From positions 1 to 61,383 of the forward strand of contig JBDRBF010000023.1 in the NCBI GenBank assembly GCA_043822925.1: a stretch of DNA of 61,383 nt, read 5' to 3'. The DNA is from a bacterium (GTDB lineage Bacteria; Babelota; Babeliae; Babelales; RVW-14). This document shows, piece by piece, positions 19,590 to 32,459 of this stretch (position 1 is the stretch's first letter; every line of letters begins with the position of its first letter). The position numbers and the translations under genes are program-made. The notes under the pieces are model-generated. The model was not told the origin of the DNA and did no database searches. It was given only the letters and a program-made list of their open reading frames with translations.

Positions 19590-20913
19590 CGCTGCATTTT
19601 TTATTCCTGATTCGTGTGGTTTTTTGATTGTTTTTTCTGGCTTGCTTTTATTTTATATATTTTTAAAACAGCAAAATTTATGGCACAATTTTAGTGCAGG
19701 ATTTACGTGGGGGCTGGTGGCCTACGGATTGCACTTTATCTGGCTCCATGAGCTGCTTGCTAAAAAGTCGTGCGCTGGCACAGGGCTTTCTCTTTTTTTA
19801 TATATATTTATTGTCATATATTTTTCTTTTACGAGTGCTCTTTGGTTTGGCGCTAGTACTTTTTTTGTAAATTTAACACGTAAAATTTGTGTACTAAAAA
19901 CAATTATAAGTGTTTGCGTGATAAGTATAATTACAGGAATTTATTTTTGGTTTTTAGGTAATTACGCATTGTTTTTTATGGGGATCTGTGAAGGTTATCC
20001 ATGCCTAAATCCCGCAATACCATTAGCTCGCTATAAAATATTTTTACGTTTAGTTTCATGTTTATATGGGTTTATGCCTGGAGTAAGTCATATAGATTAT
20101 GCGAGGGATCTTCAATCACCATTTAAATTATATGATATTGTTTATTTAAAGCCTGCGCCAGCATTGCAAACACAAAATAAACTGGCGCTTGAGCAATATG
20201 TATATCATAAGATCGTGCAAGGGAGTACGAAACTTTTGCTTGCTGCAAATGGCGGAAAGGGCGAGGATGGATCCCAGATCAAGTCTGGGATGACAAGACT
20301 TTCAAAGCAAAGTCTTGTCATTTATGTCGCACCAGAAAGTTTTTTCCCATATCCGTTAAATACAAATCCAGAAATACTTAAATTTTGGAGTAACGCATTG
20401 CCATACTCAAGTCATTTACTTATGGGAAGTTTTTATCAAGAAGAAAATAAAAGTTTATGTCACTGCGTATATCATATATTTCATGGTAAAATTATTAATT
20501 GTTATAAAAAAAAACATAGTGTAATTTTTGTTGAAAAAATGCCACCATTCTTTAAAAAATGTATTATACTAAGGGACATGTTTTTGAAAGATTTGTCAGA
20601 GCTGAGTGTAGAAACAAAGTGTAATCAAAAAACTATTTTTACTATTGGATCAACGCAAATAATTTCGCAAATATGTTCAGATTTTTTTTTAAAAAATAAG
20701 GTACAAGATCTTTTATATAATATTCAATGTGATGGTAGTGGCGATTATAAAAATGTGTGTATATTTTTGTATGTAAATGATAGCTGGTTTGTTGATTATT
20801 TTAAAAAAATAATGGAAAATCTAATCTATCTTAAAGTAGCGCAGCTTAGAATTCCCATAGTTTTCATTAATCATACTAAGTGTAAAGAAATATGGTCAAG
20901 ATCCCCGGAATAA
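19516..20913 (+). CDS. lnt: Apolipoprotein N-acyltransferase-like protein
   Basis: N-terminal multi-TM domain, then nitrilase-fold triad motifs APESFF (E), YKKKHSVIFVEKMP (K), QICSDFF (C), and VNDSWF. Confidence 0.8.
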   Translation: MTYKTRRLTIFQLLSTTLLSALLFSAAFFIPDSCGFLIVFSGLLLFYIFLKQQNLWHNFSAGFTWGLVAYGLHFIWLHELLAKKSCAGTGLSLFLYIFIVIYFSFTSALWFGASTFFVNLTRKICVLKTIISVCVISIITGIYFWFLGNYALFFMGICEGYPCLNPAIPLARYKIFLRLVSCLYGFMPGVSHIDYARDLQSPFKLYDIVYLKPAPALQTQNKLALEQYVYHKIVQGSTKLLLAANGGKGEDGSQIKSGMTRLSKQSLVIYVAPESFFPYPLNTNPEILKFWSNALPYSSHLLMGSFYQEENKSLCHCVYHIFHGKIINCYKKKHSVIFVEKMPPFFKKCIILRDMFLKDLSELSVETKCNQKTIFTIGSTQIISQICSDFFLKNKVQDLLYNIQCDGSGDYKNVCIFLYVNDSWFVDYFKKIMENLIYLKVAQLRIPIVFINHTKCKEIWSRSPE

Positions 20914-20949
20914 AATAAGTATATGTACATAACGTAAGAAGGAGCACCG

Positions 20950-21393
20950 ATGCGTGTTTATATGCTCAAAGATGTTGAAAAAGTTGGAATGGCCGGACAT
21001 ATTATTGAAGTTTCAGATGGCTATGCTAAAAATTTTTTATTTCCAAAAAAATTAGCGGTAAATGCAGCTGGTGCACATGCGGCTAGTTATGAAAAACGTG
21101 TCGTTAAAGAAAAGATAGAAAAACAAGTACTTAATAGCAAAATGGACATGCTTGCTGAACGCATAAAAACATTACATATTACTATTAAAGAACGTAGCCA
21201 TGATGATGGTAAATTATATGGTTCAGTTGGAGCAGACGAAGTACTTGTACATTTAAAAGAAAAAGATATCTCAGTTAACAAGAAACAAATTGAATTTGAT
21301 AAAGCAATTAGAAATGTCGGTGAACATAAAGTTACTGTAAAGCTTTCATCGAAACTTAAACCTCAATTTACCTTAAAAGTGGTGGCAAAATAA
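20950..21393 (+). CDS. rplI: 50S ribosomal protein L9
   Basis: DVEKVG...VSDGYAKNFLFPK; GKLYGSV. Confidence 0.97.
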   Translation: MRVYMLKDVEKVGMAGHIIEVSDGYAKNFLFPKKLAVNAAGAHAASYEKRVVKEKIEKQVLNSKMDMLAERIKTLHITIKERSHDDGKLYGSVGADEVLVHLKEKDISVNKKQIEFDKAIRNVGEHKVTVKLSSKLKPQFTLKVVAK

Positions 21394-21394
21394 A

Positions 21395-22798
21395 ATGGCG
21401 GACAATGCACCTACTTTTCAAAAATTCAGACAAGATCAACCTAAACAACGAGAGACTGAAGGCATTTTGGGAAAAAGTTTGCCTTCTAATCTGGATGCCG
21501 AAAAGTCGGTGCTTGCTGCTATTTTGCTTAATGACGAAAATATTACATTAGTTTCAGATCAACTTAAGCCTGACGATTTTTATAGTAAAGCACACGCAGC
21601 ACTATTTCAGTCGATTTTAGAACTTGCTCAAGATTCTAAACGTATTGACCTGGTTGTTTTGCAAGATCATCTTGAAAAACATAATAGGCTTGTTACCGTT
21701 GGCGGTATTGAATATTTAATAGAACTGCAAGAAGACATTCCATCAATGGGATTAATTATTCAGCATGCAAAAATTGTACGTGATAAAGCTGTCTTGCGTA
21801 ACTTAATACATTCGGCAGCTGAAATTATTACAACGTGTTATGACCAAAAAATTAGTGAAATTGATTCAGTATTAGATCAAGCAGAAAGTAAGATTTACCA
21901 AATCTCGAATAAACTTGCGGCGCCAACGTTCGTACAGCTTGATATTTTACTCAAAAAAACTTTCAATCATTTGGCTCAAATTAAAAGCCATCAAGAGGGC
22001 GTTACCGGTGTTCCAGCTGGTTTTGAACGTTTTGACACCATGACATCTGGGATGCAAAAAGGGGACTTACTTATTTTGGCAGCACGACCATCTATGGGAA
22101 AAACAGCGTTGTCTCTTAATATTATGCTTAATGCTTGGAAAAGTGGTGCAGCAGTTGGTATGTTCTCTTTAGAAATGTCTTCAGAACAGTTAATCTTACG
22201 TATGCTTTCAGCCGAATCAGAAATACCAAATCAAAAAATACGTAATGCTCTTGTTTCGCCAGAAGAATGGGTAATTCTTACTAATCATGCTGCAGCATTG
22301 GCTGAAGCAAAGATTTTCATAGATGATTCTGCGACAATTAATATTATGGAATTACGCGCAAAAGCGCGTAAACTTAAAGCCCGTGAAAATATCCAACTAT
22401 TGATTATCGATTATTTACAATTAATTGGGTCTCATGGTCGGCACGAAAATAGAACACAAGAAATTTCAGCAATTTCGCGTGCCCTTAAATCTTTGGCTAA
22501 AGAACTGCAAATTCCAATACTTGCCCTTTCACAGCTTTCACGTTCACTTGAAGCACGTATAAATAAACGTCCCATGCTTTCAGACTTACGAGAATCTGGT
22601 GCGATTGAGCAAGACGCTGACGTCGTGTTTTTTGTATACCGGGATATTGTATATAATCCTGACACTGAATACCCAGATATAGCTGAAATAATTATTGGTA
22701 AACAACGTAACGGTCCGATTGGCTCGCTTAATGTCCGCTTCCGAAGTGACGTACAATTATTTGAAGAAGCCCCACCTGAATTACAAGATCCGTTTTAA
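21395..22798 (+). CDS. dnaB: Replicative DNA helicase
   Basis: AARPSMGKT, FSLEMS, IIDYLQL, LSQLSR, DLRESGAIEQDAD, KQRNGP. Confidence 0.98.
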   Translation: MADNAPTFQKFRQDQPKQRETEGILGKSLPSNLDAEKSVLAAILLNDENITLVSDQLKPDDFYSKAHAALFQSILELAQDSKRIDLVVLQDHLEKHNRLVTVGGIEYLIELQEDIPSMGLIIQHAKIVRDKAVLRNLIHSAAEIITTCYDQKISEIDSVLDQAESKIYQISNKLAAPTFVQLDILLKKTFNHLAQIKSHQEGVTGVPAGFERFDTMTSGMQKGDLLILAARPSMGKTALSLNIMLNAWKSGAAVGMFSLEMSSEQLILRMLSAESEIPNQKIRNALVSPEEWVILTNHAAALAEAKIFIDDSATINIMELRAKARKLKARENIQLLIIDYLQLIGSHGRHENRTQEISAISRALKSLAKELQIPILALSQLSRSLEARINKRPMLSDLRESGAIEQDADVVFFVYRDIVYNPDTEYPDIAEIIIGKQRNGPIGSLNVRFRSDVQLFEEAPPELQDPF

Positions 22799-22871
22799 TA
22801 TTTTTGAGACATAAATTCTGGCCTAAAATAGTTTTGTGCTCAGCATAAAAAATTTAAGAGGAGAGTTTTTA

Positions 22872-23459
22872 ATGTCGGGATTAGTAATGGAGCCTTCAAA
22901 AATCATTTTAGGTATCGATCCCGGCTTTGGCACGACTGGTTACGCAATTCTCAAAAAAGATCAAAATAAAGCAACGCTTTTAGATTATGGATACTTATCA
23001 CTGCCAACGCAAAAACATTTGTCTGAGCGCATTGGTATCTTCTATAATTTTTTTAATTCTAAAATTTCTGAGCTTAAAATAACCCAGCTTGCTATAGAGA
23101 CCCCTTTTTTAGGCAAAAATGTCCAAACGTTTTTAAAACTGGGATACTTGCGTGGCGCTCTGTATTTATTAGCAGACCAGCATAATATAAATCTCTTTGA
23201 ATTCTCCCCACGGGAAGTTAAAGCTGCCGTTACAGGTTTTGGTGGGGCTTCTAAAGACCAGGTTGCGAGTATGATACTTCGGTTTTTTCCCAAGATTAAC
23301 CAAGTAAAAGCTACTGCAAAAAGCGACGTCACTGACGCCTTGGCTGTTTGTTTGACAGGGTTTTGGATGAGTGAACGCAAGAAGTTACTTGCAGCTGTCC
23401 CTGACATGTCCGATAAGTCTAAATTAATTCAAAAAGCAGTTCCAGAGCCGAAATCCTAA
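22872..23459 (+). CDS. ruvC: Holliday junction resolvase
   Basis: ILGIDPG, LAIETPF, VKAAVTGFGGASKDQV, DVTDALAV. Confidence 0.95.
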   Translation: MSGLVMEPSKIILGIDPGFGTTGYAILKKDQNKATLLDYGYLSLPTQKHLSERIGIFYNFFNSKISELKITQLAIETPFLGKNVQTFLKLGYLRGALYLLADQHNINLFEFSPREVKAAVTGFGGASKDQVASMILRFFPKINQVKATAKSDVTDALAVCLTGFWMSERKKLLAAVPDMSDKSKLIQKAVPEPKS

Positions 23460-23481
23460 GATCAACAGAAGCTTAACCAAG

Positions 23482-23509
23482 TCGTCCGATAATGAATATT
23501 ATGTTAACT
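23482..23509 (+). other. dif: dif site (XerC/XerD chromosome dimer resolution site)
   Basis: tcgtccgataa-tgaata-ttatgttaact has the 11-6-11 layout and closely matches E. coli GGTGCGCATAA-TGTATA-TTATGTTAAAT; located where gene orientation converges. Confidence 0.88.
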
Positions 23510-24391
23510 TTTCAGCTTTCTCTTAACTTTGTGACTAAAATCAAAAAAATCTGCCAAACAAAATTTCACCTGTGGTTCATTTTTAGATTCGTCTTTATCA
23601 AAATTAATTTGTTTAAGAAATTTAGAAATGATTTTTTTATTTTTATTATATTTTGGTTTTTTAATTTCCAAATTTACTGTCTCAAAAATATTAAAAAGTT
23701 GAAGATCAATTAGTTCGTTAAAATATTCAATTAAACAGATAAGTGCATTTGAATTTCCATAGAGATATACATTCATCAAAATTTGATAAAAATTAAATTT
23801 TTTATCAATCGAATTTTCCATCTGCATAAGAGCAAAAACAAAATACTCAGGATCCATGGTTTTAACTATTTCAGAATGCTCATTAAAATAAGAACACAAT
23901 ATCCTTCGAGTTTCTTTATTTCCATATGCGGCAACTTCTTTTAGAATTATATCAAAATCGAAATTTTCTTGTTTTTTTTCACTGTATAAATCATTAATAC
24001 ATGATTTATCATGTTTCATAAATTCTTCTAACAAATCTTCTTTAACACGTTTAAGCTCTTTTTTGGGTATAAATCCCAAGAAATCAATCGATCTGAAAAA
24101 ATCCAAAACCTGCTCTCCATCCTGCCTATCTTCACATTCATCATTACAATCAAAATAGTCAGAATCAAGTAATCTTATAAAATTAATTTTTTTATCCGAT
24201 TCAAATTGTTTTTTCATTTGGTGCCAAACAGAAGCTCTTTCTTTCTCAAGACACTGTTTGAAACATTCAAGCGCTACAATAGTCTCTTTGCTCATACCTA
24301 ATTTTGTATGCCTCATGCCCAATAAATATACACTGAAAATCATTGCGATAAATAACAATAAAACAATACGAAAGCATTTGATCATCACCAT
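23504..24391 (-). CDS. Hypothetical exported protein, very AT-rich
   Basis: Signal-like N-terminus ending LLG-M; strong RBS; stop codon lies in the dif XerD arm. Confidence 0.7.
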   Translation of the reverse strand: MVMIKCFRIVLLLFIAMIFSVYLLGMRHTKLGMSKETIVALECFKQCLEKERASVWHQMKKQFESDKKINFIRLLDSDYFDCNDECEDRQDGEQVLDFFRSIDFLGFIPKKELKRVKEDLLEEFMKHDKSCINDLYSEKKQENFDFDIILKEVAAYGNKETRRILCSYFNEHSEIVKTMDPEYFVFALMQMENSIDKKFNFYQILMNVYLYGNSNALICLIEYFNELIDLQLFNIFETVNLEIKKPKYNKNKKIISKFLKQINFDKDESKNEPQVKFCLADFFDFSHKVKRKLKS

Positions 24392-24637
24392 ATCCCCTCC
24401 CCTTATGAGCCTTCTACTCTTTCTCTCCGATAAGTCTCTTTAATACATTTAAAATATTAAAACGCCCGAACAGCCCTAAAGAGAGCTCCAATAAATAACT
24501 ATTTTTTAATATCCTACGTAGCAATAAGTTTAATCGTCAATGATTTTAATATTTGAAGCTTTCTAGCGAACAAAAAGCTCGGAGAGAAGCTCTTTCTTAA
24601 ATAGATTTATAAGAATGGTTCACAGAAGGCGCAAACG

Positions 24638-24656
24638 GTGCGCCCGCTGGGCGCAC
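24638..24656 (-). mobile_element. Probable 5' remnant of a class C group II intron
   Basis: GTGCGCCCAGCGGGCGCAC starts directly after the T-tract of an intrinsic terminator, the target site of IIC introns. No RT ORF or domain V is visible. Confidence 0.5.
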
Positions 24657-24692
24657 AAAAAAAACGCCATGTGAGTGAAGTCCCACATGGCG
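24657..24692 (-). terminator. Intrinsic terminator
   Basis: 9-bp stem cgccatgtg/cacatggcg followed by T8 on the minus strand. Confidence 0.85.
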
Positions 24693-24847
24693 AAAAAGGA
24701 GAAAGGAGAGTAGTAATGAAGTCTTTTAATACTTACTTGATTAACTTTATTTCAATAATCTTCCAGGTCCTCTATTATTTATTACAGTTCTCGAACATTC
24801 CGGAGTCTTGTTTCAAGCTTCCGGGGAGTCGCATCCCATATTAAACT
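24657..24847 (-). ncRNA. Candidate small RNA (about 190 nt)
   Basis: TTGATT-16-TATGAT promoter-like pair (24881-24854), no credible ORF, and a strong terminator that no CDS lies close to. Confidence 0.45.
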
Positions 24848-25136
24848 AAGACCATCATAACAAATTCTAACAGAGAATCAAGTCAAATTTTCACTATTTA
24901 TAAAGCATTTTAAAAAAACACTAAAAAATACATTAAATCAACGAAATTCCTATGAGAATTGTTTCAAAGAGCATAAAAAGCTTCTCAGCCAACAAAACTG
25001 GCCCCTAGCAGAACCATAACTTACGCTGGGACCTAATAAACTATAGGTTTTAGATGGAAAGTCAAACTTTTAGAACAAAAAAACATAGTTAATTTATAGT
25101 TTTTCTTATGTAATTTACGGTGTTTTTTGAATTAGA

Positions 25137-26261
25137 TTACAATTCAATGAGAAACATTTTTTGTATATCTATTGATTTAAGCAAATTATCAGAGTTTATC
25201 GGGGAAGTTATAAAGATCTGGCAGTCTAATTGCTCTAATATTGCCAAGCACAAAGAGATCTTTTCAGGGTCAAAATCAGCTGTCAAAAAGTCGTCCAGAA
25301 GCAAGACCCCTGCATTATTTTGAGCCAAAGTTTGTTGTAACTGAGCTACTTTGATTAAAAACGTAATAAGCTTTTGTTGACCACGTGAAGCAAAAACGCG
25401 TGCACGCTTTTTTTGAAAAATAATAGCAAAATCATCAATATGAGCCCCAAACAAACTTCTTGAAAGTTTAAATTCTAGATCTGTTTTATGTTGATAATCG
25501 GCCCAAAACCGCTCAAAACTTTGTGTATCAGATTTATTTTTGGCTTGATACGTAAAAGATACGTTAAATTCATCTTCTAATTGTACGTTTTGTTGTGATG
25601 CATAGTTAAAATACGTACGTAATAAACTATTTACCTGAGTTTCTAGATATACCAAATAATCACAGCGGGCTTTTTGAATTACGCGGGTTTGTTGCCAGAG
25701 CTTTTCAGTCCAAATGCCCAATTCTTGAGCTACTCGATTTTCATTCCCATAATTGTTACTAATCAGGCTATTGCGCTGAGTAAGTATTTGTTTATACAAT
25801 TTGAGTTCCTGCAAAACAGCAGGATTCTGTAAAATTAACGAGAAATTTAAGAATTCACGCCGGATATCTGGAACACCACTAACCAGTAATAAATCTTCGG
25901 CTGTAAGCGTATATATACGGTAATTAGTGATAAGTTCTTTATATGATTGTATTGGCTTCTGATTAAGTTTAACCAATTTGCCCTCTTGGGCTGTATAGCC
26001 AACTTGAACAGTATCTGCCCCACCCTGCTCTTGCGTATCGAAATTAATACGAACAAAAAAATGTTCTTTTTCAAGATTTACTAAGTCTTTACTCAGGTGG
26101 CTTCTAAATGAACGCAAGTAACAACTATAATGTATAGCTTCTAATAAACTTGTCTTGCCTGTACCATTTTTACCCTTAATAACAACGAATTTGCCGTCAA
26201 TATCAAATGTTTTATTAGTAAAACAACGAAAATTATTAAGGGTAATAGATTTTATGAGCAC
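25137..26261 (-). CDS. recF: DNA replication/repair protein RecF
   Basis: NFR, GKNGTGKTSLLEAI, RSFR, GAHIDD, ASRGQQK, LLLDD. Confidence 0.93.
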   Translation of the reverse strand: MLIKSITLNNFRCFTNKTFDIDGKFVVIKGKNGTGKTSLLEAIHYSCYLRSFRSHLSKDLVNLEKEHFFVRINFDTQEQGGADTVQVGYTAQEGKLVKLNQKPIQSYKELITNYRIYTLTAEDLLLVSGVPDIRREFLNFSLILQNPAVLQELKLYKQILTQRNSLISNNYGNENRVAQELGIWTEKLWQQTRVIQKARCDYLVYLETQVNSLLRTYFNYASQQNVQLEDEFNVSFTYQAKNKSDTQSFERFWADYQHKTDLEFKLSRSLFGAHIDDFAIIFQKKRARVFASRGQQKLITFLIKVAQLQQTLAQNNAGVLLLDDFLTADFDPEKISLCLAILEQLDCQIFITSPINSDNLLKSIDIQKMFLIEL

Positions 26262-26270
26262 CAGACCCCT

Positions 26271-27389
26271 TTAGTTTTGTACCATAGATACAGGCATTAC
26301 TAAATATGTCAGATGGTACTCTTCTTCTTGTGCTTCAAAAATAATAGGCCTGGTACTATCTTTCACAAAAAAAGAAATATCTGCTTTAGGAAACACTTGC
26401 AAGCCGTTTAATAAATACGGAGAATAAAAACGACTTTCTACTTTATCGCCTTCGTACCCTTGCATATTTATAGACTCTTCAAGTTTTCCAACTTCTTTGT
26501 TTTGTAATTTTACCGTGACCGATTTTGGAGCAAACGTAAAATTTGTTGCAACAAATTGTCCTGCAAGCAGGCAACCGGTACGCTTGAGGGTTCTTACTAA
26601 TTGGTCTTTAGCCAGTTGTGCGGGGAAAAAACCATCTTTGTTTAAAACAGGCTGATATTGTGGAAATGGATCAGACACTAAACGAGTAAACAAATTAAAG
26701 TTTTTGCCCGAAAATACAAGTTGGTTACCACAAGTTCCTAAGAAAACTTTATCGTCTGTGTTGCTTTCAAGAAGTTTTTTAAGTTCAAGTGCTGCACGCT
26801 TAGGCAATAACCATTTTTTTTCTTCTTCTAACGTATATTTTGTAGACGTCAGTCTGGCCAGACAATGCCCATCAGTTGTCACAAATGACATTCGTGTTGA
26901 ATCAAATTCAATAAGCATGCCATTAAGGGCTGAGTTTGCGTTATTTTGTGGAATAAGAAACGCAATTTTATTAAGTGCGCCAAGTAAAAACGCAGAATCA
27001 AAGTTCATAAGATTTTCAATTTTTTCTGGGAATGGAGGAAATTCCTCAGGATCTTTGATATTAAGTGCAAGATCAATTCCATCAGCTTTTAAATGTAATT
27101 GATTTTCATGAATATCAAATTCAATTTGACCGTCCATTTCTTTAACTAATTCGAAAATGCGCTTGCCCGAAATTAAGAAGTTTTTATTTTCTTCAAAATT
27201 GCTTTCTATTGCCATATGGGCTTGAAGGCTAATTTCTAGATCTGTTGCTTTAAGTGTTAATTCTCGTGGTGCAACTTCAAACATAATTGATTCTGTGATA
27301 TCAAGAGATGTGCGTTTATTGCAAATAGGCTGCATTGATGCCAGAAGCGCCAGTAGCTCTTTTTGTTCAACGACAAATTTGCCTTCCAT
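26271..27389 (-). CDS. dnaN: DNA polymerase III beta clamp
   Basis: ATDLEI, TTDGHCL, FPQY, YLVMPV; 372 aa; directly upstream of recF. Confidence 0.95.
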   Translation of the reverse strand: MEGKFVVEQKELLALLASMQPICNKRTSLDITESIMFEVAPRELTLKATDLEISLQAHMAIESNFEENKNFLISGKRIFELVKEMDGQIEFDIHENQLHLKADGIDLALNIKDPEEFPPFPEKIENLMNFDSAFLLGALNKIAFLIPQNNANSALNGMLIEFDSTRMSFVTTDGHCLARLTSTKYTLEEEKKWLLPKRAALELKKLLESNTDDKVFLGTCGNQLVFSGKNFNLFTRLVSDPFPQYQPVLNKDGFFPAQLAKDQLVRTLKRTGCLLAGQFVATNFTFAPKSVTVKLQNKEVGKLEESINMQGYEGDKVESRFYSPYLLNGLQVFPKADISFFVKDSTRPIIFEAQEEEYHLTYLVMPVSMVQN

Positions 27390-27493
27390 GTGACCTTCCC
27401 ATCATATGTAATTGGTTATTGTTAATAATTGGTAAACTTCTACTTTTGAGCATACAAAGTATACTACAGGAAGCTTTTAAATAAAAATTTATA

Positions 27494-29263
27494 TTAAATA
27501 AAACCGCCAACCTGAGTGTTCCATAATTTTGTATAAACACTCGAATTTTTTATTAATTCATTATGCGTCCCGTCTTCAACAATTTGTCCCTGGTCAAACA
27601 CCAAAATTCTATCCATAGACATAAGTGTTGATAAACGATGCGCTATGACAATAACTGTTTTATTCTGCATGAGTGTTGCAAAACTATCTTGAATACATTT
27701 TTCTGTTTGAGAATCAAGCGCCGACGTCGCTTCGTCCATAATTAAGATAGGGGCGTTTTTTAAAAAAGCACGGGCGATTGCGATGCGTTGCCGTTGACCG
27801 CCTGAAATTTTAATCCCCCGCTCACCAACTACTGTGTCATAGCCATATTCTGTTGAAAGAATAAAATCATGTGCATAGGTCTTTTTAGCCGCCCAAATAA
27901 TCTCACTTTCAGCGGCAGAATCTAACCCATAGGCTATATTTTCTTTAAACGAACGGTGAAACAATATAGTTTCTTGAGGTATAAAACTTATATTTTGACG
28001 CAGCGATTGCTGAGTCACATTTTTAACATTATAACCATCAACCAAAATACTCCCCGTTTGCACATCAAAAATCCGTGTAATTAAGTTAACAAATGTACTT
28101 TTACCTGCGCCAGAAAAGCCAACTATGCCTACTTTTTGATTTTGCTCAATTTTAACAGAAAGATTTGAGAAAATATTTTGTTGCCCATAAAAAGCGAAAT
28201 TTACAGAATCAAAGATAATTTCGCCTCGCACATTTTTTAAAACATGAGCACGTGGTAAATCAATTATTTTATGCTCTATATTTATTAGCTTAAGCGCTTG
28301 CTTACATCTGCCAACAGATTCTGAAAACGTCACAAAATCTTCTGAGATATTCGAAATTATTTCAGAGATAGAAAGCGCTAACGATATGGTTAATGCAAAA
28401 TCTCCAATTGTTATGGCACTATTTTGCCGCGCATAGAGCAAAACAACTAATAATAGCGCAACCATACCAAAAACGGAGAGAGACTGGATGGTACGTATTT
28501 TTAACATACACCATTCTAATTTTTTACCCGCCTTAACTTGTTCATCAAGAGCACGCCGGACATCAGCCATTTCTCTTTGGTGTTGAGTAAAGAGTCTTAC
28601 CGTCATAACATTAGATAAGCTATCAACAATTTTTCCGGTAACCTGATTTTGTGTGCCAGAAAGGACTTCAGCCAACGCGCCAGATTTTTTTGATAACATA
28701 ACAGAAATTACCAAGAAAAATACAGTCCAAGATATTAAAATTAACGCTAATAATGGATGAACGGTAAACAACGTTACCGAGGCTATCAATAATGACAAAA
28801 AATGAGCAAAAAACTTATTAATTGTTATTTTTATTATTTCTTTAACACTTTGAGACATTTCTTTAATTTGAGAAGCAATCGACCCGCTCATATTATCTTG
28901 GAAAAAAGAGTGCGACTGAAATTCGACATATGCAAGCATGCTACTGGTTATATCAGCTTGTATTTGAGGCAACATAAACAACCGTACAGCATCATAAAAT
29001 CTAAATGCCAAAATCAACACTGCCATAGAAGCCAAATAACCAAGAATGGGAAATAATAATGCAATCACTAAGCTGCCCATATTTGGTTCATATTTTGCAA
29101 CGCCATCTATTATTAATTTCATCATGTATGGCCTGACTGACAAGTCAAAAGCCAAAACAACTGATACTAAAAGTAAACAGGCTATCTTAAACGTATGCCG
29201 TTTAAGAAAATACCAAATAAATGGTACTAATTTTTTTGGTATAGAAAATATGTCTTCGCTCAT
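27494..29263 (-). CDS. ABC exporter (fused TMD + NBD)
   Basis: Six-TM N-terminal half; GFSGAGKST, ISGGQRQRIAIARA, MDEATSALD, IAHRLST. Confidence 0.95.
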   Translation of the reverse strand: MSEDIFSIPKKLVPFIWYFLKRHTFKIACLLLVSVVLAFDLSVRPYMMKLIIDGVAKYEPNMGSLVIALLFPILGYLASMAVLILAFRFYDAVRLFMLPQIQADITSSMLAYVEFQSHSFFQDNMSGSIASQIKEMSQSVKEIIKITINKFFAHFLSLLIASVTLFTVHPLLALILISWTVFFLVISVMLSKKSGALAEVLSGTQNQVTGKIVDSLSNVMTVRLFTQHQREMADVRRALDEQVKAGKKLEWCMLKIRTIQSLSVFGMVALLLVVLLYARQNSAITIGDFALTISLALSISEIISNISEDFVTFSESVGRCKQALKLINIEHKIIDLPRAHVLKNVRGEIIFDSVNFAFYGQQNIFSNLSVKIEQNQKVGIVGFSGAGKSTFVNLITRIFDVQTGSILVDGYNVKNVTQQSLRQNISFIPQETILFHRSFKENIAYGLDSAAESEIIWAAKKTYAHDFILSTEYGYDTVVGERGIKISGGQRQRIAIARAFLKNAPILIMDEATSALDSQTEKCIQDSFATLMQNKTVIVIAHRLSTLMSMDRILVFDQGQIVEDGTHNELIKNSSVYTKLWNTQVGGFI

Positions 29264-29273
29264 GTCTTATGCT

Positions 29274-29798
29274 CTATTTAACGATATTTTTTGTTAATTG
29301 GGCTTCTTCTAATCTTTTTAAAATATTATCAATAACTGCATCCAGTGCTTCAGGAGTGCTTGCATTATATTTTATAACATTAGGATGGTCCAGCAAGCGA
29401 TGAAATTTGTTTTGAACAAGCTCTAGTTCATCATATGCAATTATTTGTTCAAAACTCCGCTCTTGATATCTTTTTTTTAAAACTTCAGGAGAAACATGCG
29501 TTAAAATTACAATAAAATGCTCATATACATATTTATTAAGACTTTGTAATTCCCAATCCTGAAAGCTACACCCACCGCGCCAAACATCTGAATACACACA
29601 TTCACTAAAATGTGCTCTATCAAAAACTATTTTATCTGCAAAAATATACTGTCCCATATATCTATCAAATTGATTCACATCTTGATGCCCCAGAGAAGCT
29701 AAATCCCAGCCGAACCAACTTAATTTTGCTTTAAGTGTTTTTATTAACGTTGTTTTGCCTGAGCAATCACAACCTTCTACAATAATACCCTTAATCAT
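29274..29798 (-). CDS. P-loop dNMP kinase-like protein (thymidylate-kinase superfamily)
   Basis: IIVEGCDCSGKTT Walker A and FDRAHFSECVY (DR motif). Confidence 0.8.
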   Translation of the reverse strand: MIKGIIVEGCDCSGKTTLIKTLKAKLSWFGWDLASLGHQDVNQFDRYMGQYIFADKIVFDRAHFSECVYSDVWRGGCSFQDWELQSLNKYVYEHFIVILTHVSPEVLKKRYQERSFEQIIAYDELELVQNKFHRLLDHPNVIKYNASTPEALDAVIDNILKRLEEAQLTKNIVK

Positions 29799-29814
29799 AA
29801 CCCCTCGTCTTAAT

Positions 29815-30366
29815 CTATTCTTTTACTAAACTACCCGGAAGTTTATTCCCAAATAAACCCTTAGGATTATACGCCTGAGGACCAACTCCACCCTGATATT
29901 TTCCAATATATTGGTCAATCTCACCGTAAGATTTAATAAAAACTATCTGGCCAATTTTTTGCCCCGGATATACTTTTACAGGCACCGTCGCTCTAAACTG
30001 TAATGTCCATTGACCCCTATACCCAATATCACCAAGTGGCGCTGTAATATGAACAAATAACCCTAACCGTCCAGTGGAAGACCGCCCACCAATCAAAGGC
30101 ACATGGCAACTACTGCCCATCTCTTCAAGTGTATGTCCCAGGTAAAATTTGCCCGGTTCAAGAACAAAGCCATCGGGAGAGAGTAAAATTTCTTTTATAG
30201 GCGCTTTAAATTGCGTATCTATTACATCCTGAACATCATACATAACAAGACGATCACCAAGTCTAAAATTATACGAATTTGGATTTAATAAATCAGGGTC
30301 GTACGGACTAATCAGAATATTTCCGTTCTTTACTTCGAGATCTATTTGGTTGCCCGTTAAAATCAT
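29815..30366 (-). CDS. dCTP deaminase-like protein (trimeric dUTPase fold), paralogue B
   Basis: MILTG..I, NPNSYNFRLG, GRSSTGRLG, GDIGYRGQWTLQF, GQKIGQIVF, YIGKYQ. Confidence 0.88.
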   Translation of the reverse strand: MILTGNQIDLEVKNGNILISPYDPDLLNPNSYNFRLGDRLVMYDVQDVIDTQFKAPIKEILLSPDGFVLEPGKFYLGHTLEEMGSSCHVPLIGGRSSTGRLGLFVHITAPLGDIGYRGQWTLQFRATVPVKVYPGQKIGQIVFIKSYGEIDQYIGKYQGGVGPQAYNPKGLFGNKLPGSLVKE

Positions 30367-30422
30367 TTTTTTCCTATTATCATCCCAGGCGCGATATGGG
30401 ATCTAAGCCTTATTTTTTCTCT

Positions 30423-30941
30423 TTACTTCCTAAATTCTTTCCACTGTTTGCCAGGCAAACTATGCGGCATATTCTGATAATCACCATTATAAGTAATTGT
30501 ATTCCCCGTAAGTTTCCAAAAAACCATCTGACCAATAAGTTGATACGGATATAACTTAATTCTATGATCTGTTGTTATTTCAAGCGTCCACTGCGTTATT
30601 GCCCCCGAGTGGCCAAGATCAGCCGAAATATGAATAAATATTCCGGTACTTCCAACATCACGCAATGCAAAAATTTGTTGCGCATAATCATGCGCCCCCA
30701 TCACTTCATATGTTTGAGCTAAATATAAAACGCCAGGTTCAAGCACATATCCTGTTTCTGGCATATCTTCAAAACATAAATCTGATGATTGCTTGGAATC
30801 AAGCGGCCCATAAATAGGACTTATTTTATTATTAATTCTGAATTTGTATGAAATTGTACCAAGATTGTTCTTATCGAATGGACTTAACACAATCTGTCCG
30901 GTAGATACGTTTTTTGCGATCTCATTTGCTGTTAAAATCAT
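30423..30941 (-). CDS. dCTP deaminase-like protein, paralogue A
   Basis: MILTA..I, SYKFRI, VLEPGVLYLAQTYE, WTLEI, LIGQMVF, YNGDYQ; the RSS motif is degenerate. Confidence 0.8.
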   Translation of the reverse strand: MILTANEIAKNVSTGQIVLSPFDKNNLGTISYKFRINNKISPIYGPLDSKQSSDLCFEDMPETGYVLEPGVLYLAQTYEVMGAHDYAQQIFALRDVGSTGIFIHISADLGHSGAITQWTLEITTDHRIKLYPYQLIGQMVFWKLTGNTITYNGDYQNMPHSLPGKQWKEFRK

Positions 30942-31027: not shown

Positions 31028-31338
31028 TGTTTTTTCTGTTTTATTTTATATACACATATTAATAGTCATTTTTTAGGATTCAAATTTTTACCATAAATAG
31101 GGGTACTTTGCAAGCTGTTTTCAGATGGTATATAAAATATAATTTTTTAAAGATTAATTCTTAAAAAAATTGTATAAAATTTGCTTTAAATTTATATAAA
31201 TTTTGAACGGTCTTTATTTCTTTAATCTTGAATTAACCACCAGCTTTTGTTTAAATTCAAACAAGTAGTAAGTGTACAATTTTCGTATCCTAGTCTTTTG
31301 TGCCCTATCAGTTTGGCCTTGTTTTTTCTGGAGAGAGT

Positions 31339-32459
31339 ATGATGAAGAATGGTGCTTGGAGCTCAAAGCTTCTTCTTGTAATTGTTTTGTTTTTTATGGG
31401 GGGGGGATCTTTACTACCTGTCAGGCAATGCTTGCGCCAGCAAAACCTACGGCTATTATAGGTTATGACAATGAGATTGCAAATACTACGGAAGATCAAG
31501 TACAAGAAGAGTTTGCAAAATATCTTAAAAAAAAAGAATCTGATTTAGGCTTGACCCTCGATTTTGCTAACGAAAAACAGTTTACGACAGAGAAGAAAGC
31601 TGATTTCTTATTTTATCTTACCTATAATTCGATCGCAATAAAAAATGAAGAAAACTTCACCAGGCTAAAAAATACAGCTAATTGTACTGTGGTGATAAAC
31701 GTAACACGCAAAAAAAAAATCGAACCTGATCAAATTACACCTATTATTTCAACTTTAAAAAACACAGATGGTAAAGATCTGCTTACAGCCAAATATTTCA
31801 TTGTCCAATTTGCATATGCTGATTATACATTTTGGAAAGATAATAAGAGTACAACCGATATAAAAGAAAGCGATAGTAACAAGGCGTGGGAAGCGTTAGT
31901 AAAAAAAATCTTGTTAGAAAAAATATCTAATAACCAAAATATAAGTAAATTAACTGAAACAGATTTAACAAATCTGCTAAATTTTGTTACCGCCAATAAT
32001 GGAGATTGTATCCTTCCAGCAATTAACGTAATAAAATATTATTTTGAGCAAAAATTAAACCTGCCGACTGAAAAGAAGACGCAAATTCTTAATATAAAAA
32101 GCGCATTACTCGCAAATGATACAGCTAAGAAAGAAATGTTAAGCACAGTAACCAACGTTACCGTGCTGCCCAAAGAAAAAAGCGACCAACGATACTTACT
32201 CTTTTTATGTAATAATTTATTTGATAAAGGCGATGATTATAAAACTGCAACAAAAAACGCCTACAATATTTTAAAAGAAACAAAAATTGATGATGAAAAA
32301 ATAAAAGAACGATTAAAATTATTTAAAGACAACATAGAAGAACCTGAAGAAACGCCTATGCAAAAACAAATAAACAAATTCTCGGCAGCCCTTGCCCATC
32401 TAAAAGATAAACTTGCAGCGCTTGCCACAAATATGAAACAAGTGAAGGATAAGTTATAA
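31339..32459 (+). pseudogene. Exported protein frameshifted at a G9 tract (phase-variable gene or sequencing error)
   Basis: RBS + ATG 31339 encodes MMKNGAWSSKLLLVIVLFFMGG, out of frame with the long body. G10 or G7 would fuse them into a signal peptide ending TCQA-M. Confidence 0.7.

Follow-up and report, generated by a model that had tools for sequence, protein, structure and literature searches.

Introduction

Enzymes of the dUTPase/dCTP-deaminase superfamily are the textbook case of identical chains that share active sites between subunits. Each site of a trimeric dUTPase is formed by the motif-III hairpin of one chain together with motif II of its neighbor (PMC1802613), and the sites of dCTP deaminases (Dcd) lie in clefts between subunits (PMC4827122). 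These two papers also describe the roles of the motif-III Asp and of an aromatic residue that stacks on the deoxyribose. Exchange of the motif-III Asp of dUTPase for Asn abolishes hydrolysis, whereas binding is kept (PMC4827122). Asymmetric trimers of this superfamily are so far known only as engineered constructs (PMC4827122). Here, we describe two neighboring genes, paralogues A and B, that appear to divide such a site between two different chains. They lie in a stretch of 61,383 nucleotides, referred to below as the window (contig JBDRBF010000023.1 of assembly GCA_043822925.1, positions 1 to 61,383), from a Dependentiae-type bacterium of the order Babelales. We put at roughly one in two the probability that A and B are subunits of one heteromeric enzyme of the trimeric dUTPase/dCTP-deaminase fold, which together with a linked kinase would form a cassette that interconverts the base and the phosphate state of a pyrimidine nucleotide. 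A mixed A/B oligomer with a composite site is the most likely explanation for the adjacency of the two genes in many taxa, their sister clades, natural fusions of their domains, and a model of their complex.

Results and Discussion

Sequence Motifs of Paralogues A and B

The open reading frame (ORF) listing of the window contains four genes at 27494-30941:

30423-30941, minus strand, 172 amino acids: paralogue A, an A-type DCD-fold subunit (PF22769) and putative pocket donor
29815-30366, minus strand, 183 amino acids: paralogue B, a B-type DCD-fold subunit (PF22769)
29274-29798, minus strand, 174 amino acids: P-loop kinase of the nucleoside-monophosphate type, Tmk/dNK-like
27494-29263, minus strand, 589 amino acids: half-size ATP-binding cassette (ABC) exporter, MsbA/NdvA-like, with a transmembrane domain and a nucleotide-binding domain; its functional membership is doubtful

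The gaps between them are 56 bp (A to B), 16 bp (B to kinase), and 10 bp (kinase to ABC gene). The original prediction for this locus, made from the window alone, had described four co-oriented, tightly spaced genes, and both the arrangement and the coordinates hold.

Both paralogues match the DCD family PF22769 (A, 68.6 bits; B, 132.2 bits; cut-off, 27). With the dCTP deaminase model TIGR02274 (cut-off, 92.8 bits), B scores 98 bits, narrowly above, and A scores 46.9 bits, below. B also gives a weak match to DCD_N (PF06559; 24.3 bits), and the archaeal dUTPase model NF002598 returns 15.8 and 22.1 bits for the two paralogues, with a cut-off of 130. A and B are 37% identical, and no solved Dcd is as close to A as B is.

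The catalytic motifs were located by alignment to solved Dcd and DCD-DUT chains and by a separate alignment. B carries GRSSTGRLG, retains the motif-III Asp113 and the aromatic Tyr116 (APLGDIG), and has Gln123 at the position of the catalytic Glu (WTLQF). A retains this Glu (Glu121, in WTLEI) and has ALRDVGSTG where the Arg/Ser motif is expected. We take GRSSxxR to correspond to Ser111 and Arg115 of E. coli Dcd and the Glu of TLE to correspond to its Glu138. The motif states that had been claimed, GRSSxGR with WTLQF in B and WTLEI with ALRDVGSTG in A, are thus confirmed against the solved chains. Two further changes in A had been overlooked: His occupies the motif-III Asp position (ADLGHSG), and Ala occupies the sugar-stacking position, where canonical enzymes and B have an aromatic residue. 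In addition, A has Asp at the position of the C-terminal Lys. No single chain, A or B, bears the Arg/Ser motif, the Asp, and the Glu all together. In the M. jannaschii enzyme, exchange of this Glu for Gln, a variant whose sequence is among the solved chains aligned here, is reported to abolish deamination only. The WTLE, AQQIF, and SADLG segments of A are invariant or nearly so in 19 homologues, down to 48% identity, which indicates that the motif state of A is not due to chance.

Family-Wide Classes and Phylogeny

A word-based search returned 1110 proteins with B as the query and 19 close relatives with A; an exhaustive search with A returned 1452 relatives. In the best 120 of the 1110 relatives of B, the Glu position is occupied by Gln, or by Met in Streptomyces and its kin. 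From all collected sequences, 333 DCD domains were excised and classed by three alignment columns; the sample is redundant and was collected using A and B as queries. The three classes are as follows:

Canonical class: Arg/Ser motif present, Asp, Glu; 93 domains
B-type class: Arg/Ser motif present, Asp, Gln or Met at the Glu position; 145 domains
A-type class: Arg/Ser motif present in 30 and absent in 47, His, Asn, or Gln at the Asp position, Glu; 77 domains

Loss of Asp and loss of Glu are mutually exclusive across the 333 domains. These counts indicate that the family-wide complementarity is that of Asp versus Glu, with loss of the Arg/Ser motif as an extra change on the A side only. The complementary defects of the original prediction are therefore real as motif states, but their interpretation changes. 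Because Gln or Met is found in 145 domains of a large B clade, the Gln of B is a clade-wide rule rather than a defect peculiar to this genome, and loss of the Arg/Ser motif, the defect that had been named for A, is secondary and affects only 47 of the 77 A-type domains.

The conservation of individual residues follows the same division. The first Ser and the downstream Arg of the motif are each present in 145 of 145 B-type domains, as compared to 32 and 34, respectively, of the 77 A-type domains. The core of the A-type pocket is conserved (Trp, 76/77; Leu, 77/77; Gly, 76/77). The aromatic residue is kept in 95/96 canonical and 129/145 B-type domains, whereas 55 of the 77 A-type domains have Ala or Ser at this position. 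That the motif of B is never lost, while that of A often is and the core of its pocket is kept, points to one enzyme.

In a tree of the 303 non-identical domains (FastTree, LG+gamma, midpoint root), all inspected A-types fall into a single clade (62 tips, support 0.936), and the B-types fall into another (144 tips, 139 of them B-type, support 0.897). These clades group together as sisters (support 0.647), and canonical Dcd, the single-copy Dcd of other Dependentiae among it, branches apart from them. A and B appear to belong to an old pair of paralogues that moves as one unit among several phyla. In public annotation, their genes are misnamed "dCTP deaminase", and the ESM Atlas returned only generic clusters of that name. 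Within the canonical clade, a few proteins have Asn in place of the motif-III Asp, among them those of the Dependentiae genes L100 (genome G188) and L013 (genome G162). L100 additionally has Ser in place of the aromatic residue and is unlinked to the canonical copy, which is on another contig of G188. Pocket changes like those of A have therefore arisen more than once.

Gene Linkage and Natural Fusions

A DCD match was found in 95 of 201 sampled Dependentiae genomes; the A/B pair is present only in the source genome and in G059, and neither of these has a canonical copy. When 28 loci were fetched from other genomes, a motif filter identified a single canonical gene (GRSS with WTLE) in 22. Of the other six, L013 has WTLE but, by the filter, no Arg/Ser motif, and five gave no ORF that passed. 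Five loci carrying the pair, the window included, were available with flanks; another, L036, ends just after the kinase start and is outside this set. Their gene orders are as follows:

Window: A, B, kinase, ABC
L003 ("Candidatus Babeliaceae" metagenome-assembled genome): A, kinase, kinase, B, ABC, kinase
L035 (metagenome relative): A, kinase, B, ABC
L037 (43% G+C): A, kinase, kinase, B; no ABC gene
L038 (50% G+C): A, kinase, kinase, B; no ABC gene

In all five loci, A and B share one gene block, in which they are adjacent or parted only by the kinase gene, and one or two tandem kinase domains lie inside or directly after the pair. The predicted link between the pair and the kinase is thus upheld. 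The link to the ABC gene is weak, with this gene accompanying the module in three of the five. In L037 and L038, a class I S-adenosylmethionine (SAM) methyltransferase domain is fused to the C-terminus of B.

The pair also occurs on plasmids. A tblastn search of plasmids returned 64 records with B and 19 with A. In 12 of 14 records with more than one matching place, the best places for A and B are distinct and at most about 100 bp apart (1.2 kb in Embleya); the single-place records that were inspected are canonical. A and B are adjacent on plasmids of Streptomyces, Nonomuraea, Nocardiopsis, and Rhizobium, and every B-type gene inspected in context is adjoined by an A-type gene. The clusters contain the following genes:

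Streptomyces NBC_01562: MurA-like protein, metallophosphoesterase, B, A
Rhizobium etli and R. sullae: A, B, SAM methyltransferase, cytidine-deaminase-domain protein, Nudix protein, metallophosphoesterase
Nocardiopsis, Nonomuraea, and Streptomyces F12: P-loop protein, A, B, followed by SAM methyltransferase, sugar-nucleotide, and glycosyltransferase genes

The P-loop genes upstream of the pair in Nocardiopsis and Nonomuraea are of the "ATP-binding" kind. A cytidine deaminase is present in the Streptomyces F12 cluster; its Nonomuraea counterpart is annotated as hypothetical, and Nocardiopsis has none. Judged by gene content, the plasmid clusters look like modified-nucleoside pathways, and the chemistry of A and B may for this reason uncover a new nucleotide-derived metabolite.

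Three relatives join a pocket-donor and a motif-donor domain in one chain. In P0144 and P0168, which have three DCD domains, Asp and Glu stand in the first, which has no Arg/Ser motif; a degenerate domain follows, and GRSS is found in the last, beside a dead pocket. P0182 has two, the first with GRSS and a dead pocket and the second with His and Glu but without the Arg/Ser motif. Fusions of a motif donor to a pocket donor are meaningful only when the two parts come together between units.

In a different set of fusions, B-type domains are joined to a PPDK_N ATP-grasp domain (P0143, P0149, P0158, and P0165; about 611-840 amino acids). P0143 and P0165 also contain a PEP-utilizers mobile domain, whereas P0149 and P0158 contain PPDK_N only. 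The DCD-PPDK_N combination appears to be an undescribed architecture, and it suggests phosphotransfer coupled to a DCD-like pocket.

Linkage and fusions also bear on an explanation that dispenses with a mixed enzyme. B alone could be a homotrimeric nucleoside-triphosphate pyrophosphatase of the dUTPase or dCTPase type, with A as a noncatalytic regulator or scaffold, or as a separate nucleotide-binding homotrimer without turnover. B has every motif but the Glu and exceeds the TIGR02274 cut-off, its clade is the larger in our sample (144 versus 62 tips, and 1110 versus 19 word-based matches), and A has lost several phosphate-binding residues (the Arg/Ser motif and the C-terminal Lys). A pure scaffold is hard to square, however, with WTLE and hairpin glycines that are invariant in the 19 homologues of A and across the A clade. 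An independent B would also not be expected to adjoin an A-type gene wherever its context was inspected, or to be fused as a motif-donor domain to a pocket-donor domain. We consider this explanation unlikely.

Complex Model and Proposed Mechanism

The contact between A and B was modeled as a B2A complex. This model scores 0.90 in three runs, whereas the best of three controls scores 0.00. Of 80 solved complexes, 58 attain the pass mark, as do 2 of 110 mismatched pairs; this calibration is rough here, as our own alignments and three chains were used. The three runs share at least 88% of contacts, and the pLDDT (predicted confidence) of the partner is at least 84. In the model, Gly99 of B, next to Arg100, contacts Glu121 of A, and Gln123 of the other copy of B contacts Gly97 and Ser98 in the degenerate motif of A.

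We propose that each site would lie between two subunits, one giving the pocket (motif-III Asp, aromatic residue, and Glu of TLE) and its neighbor giving the Arg/Ser motif. A would give a pocket that has the deaminating Glu but a rebuilt sugar site, with His for Asp and Ala for the aromatic residue, and this pocket could be completed only by the Arg/Ser motif of a neighboring B. The resulting site would deaminate a cytosine nucleotide whose sugar is not recognized in the manner of 2'-deoxyribose. A B pocket completed by the motif of a second B could bind or hydrolyze a nucleoside triphosphate but, having Gln for Glu, could not deaminate it. A B pocket that faces the degenerate motif of A would be the dead third site of a B2A ring. 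The pyrimidine nucleotide handled by the cassette is probably a cytosine nucleotide. The kinase or kinases, of the phage-type P-loop class, could feed the triphosphate or rephosphorylate the monophosphate product, and in relatives the SAM methyltransferase would extend the cassette by acting between the other steps. The subunit contacts in this scheme are those of the model, and the catalysis, substrate, direction of flux, and stoichiometry are the parts that we infer.

Several observations weigh against one mixed enzyme. Homotrimeric DCDs have been solved, so the B2A pass may be a memory of these structures, and the model speaks to compatibility and geometry rather than to a preference for mixed over pure trimers. 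The Arg/Ser motif is intact in 30 of the 77 A-type domains, in which A could work alone. The tree was built from sequences collected with A and B as queries and was midpoint-rooted in FastTree, and support for the node that unites A and B is just 0.647. A few genes with Asn for Asp that stand alone or are unlinked also fall within the canonical clade (in G162 and G188), so this change alone is no proof that a partner is needed. Matches between the kinases and methyltransferases of the plasmid clusters and those of the Dependentiae-type clusters are only P-loop-level or 20-27% identical by BLAST, which makes these partners analogous, with orthology not shown; the idea that they are orthologous was dropped for this reason. 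No methyltransferase homologue was found in the source genome (tblastn, E 1e-4), and no biochemical description of any A- or B-type protein was found in the literature. Set beside these points, the complementarity, adjacency, sister clades, fusions, and B2A model still favor a mixed oligomer with a composite site, in line with the original prediction, although the model does not show that a mixed trimer is preferred.

A bolder version of this proposal would make A and B the catalytic core of a widespread, uncharacterized pathway to a sugar- or base-modified pyrimidine nucleotide. The pair would then be an obligate heterotrimer, for example B2A, with one deaminating site that has a rebuilt sugar pocket and one hydrolyzing site, and its partners would be kinases, joined in many lineages by a SAM methyltransferase, a zinc cytidine deaminase, and enzymes of sugar transfer. 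Taken as a whole, we regard this version as a long shot. The modified nucleotide that had been predicted gains some support from the methyltransferase fusions in relatives, and its export is purely conjectural. If the pathway exists, the fusions in L037 and L038 could provide a folate-independent route from a cytosine nucleotide through a methylated uracil nucleotide to the triphosphate, and Dependentiae with the ABC gene could release the product into the host cell.

Nucleotide Metabolism of the Source Genome

The source genome (1.52 Mb, 92% complete) contains ThyX, a canonical Tmk, two PF00383 deaminase genes, and several TLC/NTT-like transporter ORFs. Searches of this 92%-complete genome found no ThyA, no PF00692 dUTPase, no ribonucleotide reductase large subunit (PF02867), and no DCD-fold gene besides A and B. 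The ThyX, deaminase, and transporter matches are on contigs C13, C32, C41, C55, and C83. With no reductase large subunit found and NTT-like transporters present, nucleotides, including deoxynucleotides, are probably imported.

This inventory leaves room for a housekeeping role. The pair, mixed or not, would replace a single Dcd and make dUMP for ThyX, an A-type site converting dCTP to dUTP and a B-type site converting dUTP to dUMP, while the kinase phosphorylates imported dCMP or dCDP. The presence of ThyX, the failure to find ThyA, a PF00692 dUTPase, or another DCD-fold gene, and the probable import of nucleotides are all in keeping with such a role. So is the distribution of DCD genes, with a match in 95 of the 201 Dependentiae genomes, a canonical gene in 22 of the 28 fetched loci, and no canonical copy in the two genomes that carry the pair. 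However, 21 of 23 sampled genomes of the family of the source have no DCD match, and only 1 of 28 in the family of G059 has one. Because DCD is missing in most family members, the pair looks like an addition rather than a replacement. One of the two PF00383 deaminases could give dUMP from dCMP, a canonical Tmk is encoded elsewhere in the genome, and the pocket of A is without both residues that hold 2'-deoxyribose. The partners on plasmids (methyltransferase, cytidine deaminase, glycosyltransferase, Nudix protein, and metallophosphoesterase) and the fusions of L037 and L038 have no place in plain dUMP supply. A housekeeping role is therefore conceivable but doubtful. For its host, which seemingly imports its nucleotides, the cassette would be an accessory module of nucleotide metabolism.

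Kinase and ABC Genes

The kinase matches Thymidylate_kin (PF02223) weakly, at 37.9 bits, and dNK at 24.2 bits. It scores 42.3 bits with the Tmk model TIGR00041, below the cut-off of 83.25, and 61 bits with phrog_761. Its best solved relative is YorR of prophage SPbeta (2axp, E 1.9e-6). The canonical Tmk of the source genome, on contig C2, scores 162 bits with PF02223, and its presence rules out the linked kinase as the housekeeping Tmk. In L003, a third kinase paralogue (4538-5215), which is 50% identical to the window kinase and has a hydrophobic, signal-like N-terminal extension, follows the ABC gene.

The ABC protein has ABC_membrane and ABC_tran domains in a fused architecture. Its best NCBIfam equivalogs score 358.7 and 352.9 bits, with cut-offs of 733 and 780, and by these scores it is a member of the MsbA/NdvA type that belongs to no named equivalog. 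Homologues with 40-45% identity occur in many Dependentiae genomes without A and B, and no DCD or kinase gene lies within 1.5 kb of them. A module-specific transporter is weakened by this distribution and by the three-of-five linkage.

The original prediction had gone further. In it, the four genes would produce a modified nucleotide for export by the ABC protein, as a host-directed or antimicrobial compound, or the cassette would deplete dCTP as an antiviral defense. For export, one can cite the ABC gene about 10 bp after the module in the window, its recurrence after the module in L003 and L035, whose other neighbors differ from those of the window, the methyltransferases of relatives, and the intracellular, Dependentiae-type lifestyle of the organism. 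The ABC gene is, however, absent from L037 and L038, its subfamily is common in Dependentiae genomes away from A and B, and the source genome is without the methyltransferase. The substrates known for MsbA-type exporters are, to our knowledge, lipids, glucans, peptides, and drugs and not nucleotides. These points make it doubtful that the exporter is part of the unit.

Nothing points to antiviral dCTP depletion. In PADLOC-DB 2.0.0, A, B, and a PPDK-fused relative match no families, and matches of the kinase and the ABC protein are limited to generic P-loop or ABC models; defense was dropped as a leading idea on the lack of a match. For A, the DCD genes that two scans of viral contigs brought up were all distant (25-32% identity), and for B there were none, with 11 distant matches in a tblastn search of A against phages. 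A phage origin was rejected on these scans, and the lack of a close A- or B-type gene in viral contigs also counts against export and defense. Both appear highly improbable.

Genomic Neighborhood

The other features around the block are as follows:

31272-32459, plus strand: ORF of 395 amino acids, Lys/Glu-rich, with a hydrophobic N-terminus; no Pfam match
26271-27389, minus strand: dnaN, downstream of the four-gene block
25137-26261, minus strand: recF, beyond dnaN on the same strand as the block
23504-24391, minus strand: ORF of 295 amino acids; no Pfam match

The 395- and 295-residue ORFs may encode lineage-specific secreted or host-directed proteins. Between 27000 and 31500, 19 promoter-like sites were found, as compared to 18.2 in shuffled sequence, which is no enrichment, and the terminator scan of this interval found no minus-strand terminator inside the block. 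This outcome is compatible with a single operon for the four genes but is not evidence for one. In the interval 18000-27400, the plus strand encodes ribosomal protein L9, DnaB, and RuvC as far as 23459, after which the 295-residue ORF, recF, dnaN, and the four-gene block are all on the minus strand. The GC skew flips from positive to negative near 22 kb, where the gene orientations converge. No dnaA adjoins dnaN in the inspected part of the window. In L035, the flanks of the module (4437-7898 and 11472-12869) encode a 1153-residue ankyrin-repeat protein and a peptidase of the clostripain family. Proteins of these two kinds typify host-associated Dependentiae, and the window does not share these flanks.

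Comparison with Known Systems

In the openly readable literature, judged by titles and the beginnings of abstracts, neither a natural heteromeric DCD nor this gene pair is described. The fold is known; a widespread and misannotated two-subunit architecture with conserved partners has apparently gone unrecognized. Canonical Dcd (1xs1 from E. coli, 2qxx from M. tuberculosis, 1ogh from M. jannaschii, and 4xjc from B. halodurans) shares the fold and family PF22769 with A and B, as well as the N-terminal MIL(T/S) start, the hairpin glycines, the WTL core, and the C-terminal GxYQ segment. Its sites, according to PMC4827122, are likewise in intersubunit clefts. It is built, however, from one chain type that bears the Arg/Ser motif, Asp, and Glu together, whereas in A and B these features are divided between two chains from two sister clades outside the canonical clade. 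A departs furthest, since the residues that hold the deoxyribose are gone from its pocket and its TIGR02274 score is about half the cut-off. The two-domain deaminase (DCD_N PF06559 with DCD_C PF22569, PRK07559, about 368 amino acids) resembles the pair in being a tandem DCD duplication with nonequivalent units, but it is one fused chain, whereas A and B are two genes that match the single-domain model far better.

Two other systems pair related chemistry with kinases. In the logic of T4-type phages, a dCTPase/dUTPase acts first, followed by a base-modifying enzyme and then by a deoxynucleoside-monophosphate kinase. The loci described here plausibly supply the same activities through a B pocket resembling a pyrophosphatase, one or two phage-like nucleoside-monophosphate kinase domains (phrog_761, YorR), and, in relatives, a methyltransferase. 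They differ in that the methyltransferase is of class I and SAM-dependent rather than thymidylate-synthase-like, and in that the viral-contig scans gave no close A or B genes. We know of no modified base in these organisms. Defensive dCTP deaminases with an N-terminal kinase domain deplete dCTP on infection and have the zinc-dependent CMP/dCMP-deaminase fold. Like them, the cassette combines a kinase-type domain with a cytosine-nucleotide deaminase; unlike them, A and B have the DCD fold and no PADLOC match.

The closest parallel is an artificial one. Covalent pseudo-heterotrimers of human dUTPase have been engineered to be asymmetric, with single sites switched off through the motif-III Asp or other changes, and the remaining sites are reported to work on independently (Sci Rep 2016, PMC4827122). 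P0144, P0168, P0182, and the A/B pairs are natural, and in them one unit has lost motif II while another has lost the pocket. If this natural split between motif donor and pocket donor is real, it would show how oligomers with shared sites evolve into obligate hetero-oligomers, and it would provide a ready-made model for dividing labor between deamination and hydrolysis.

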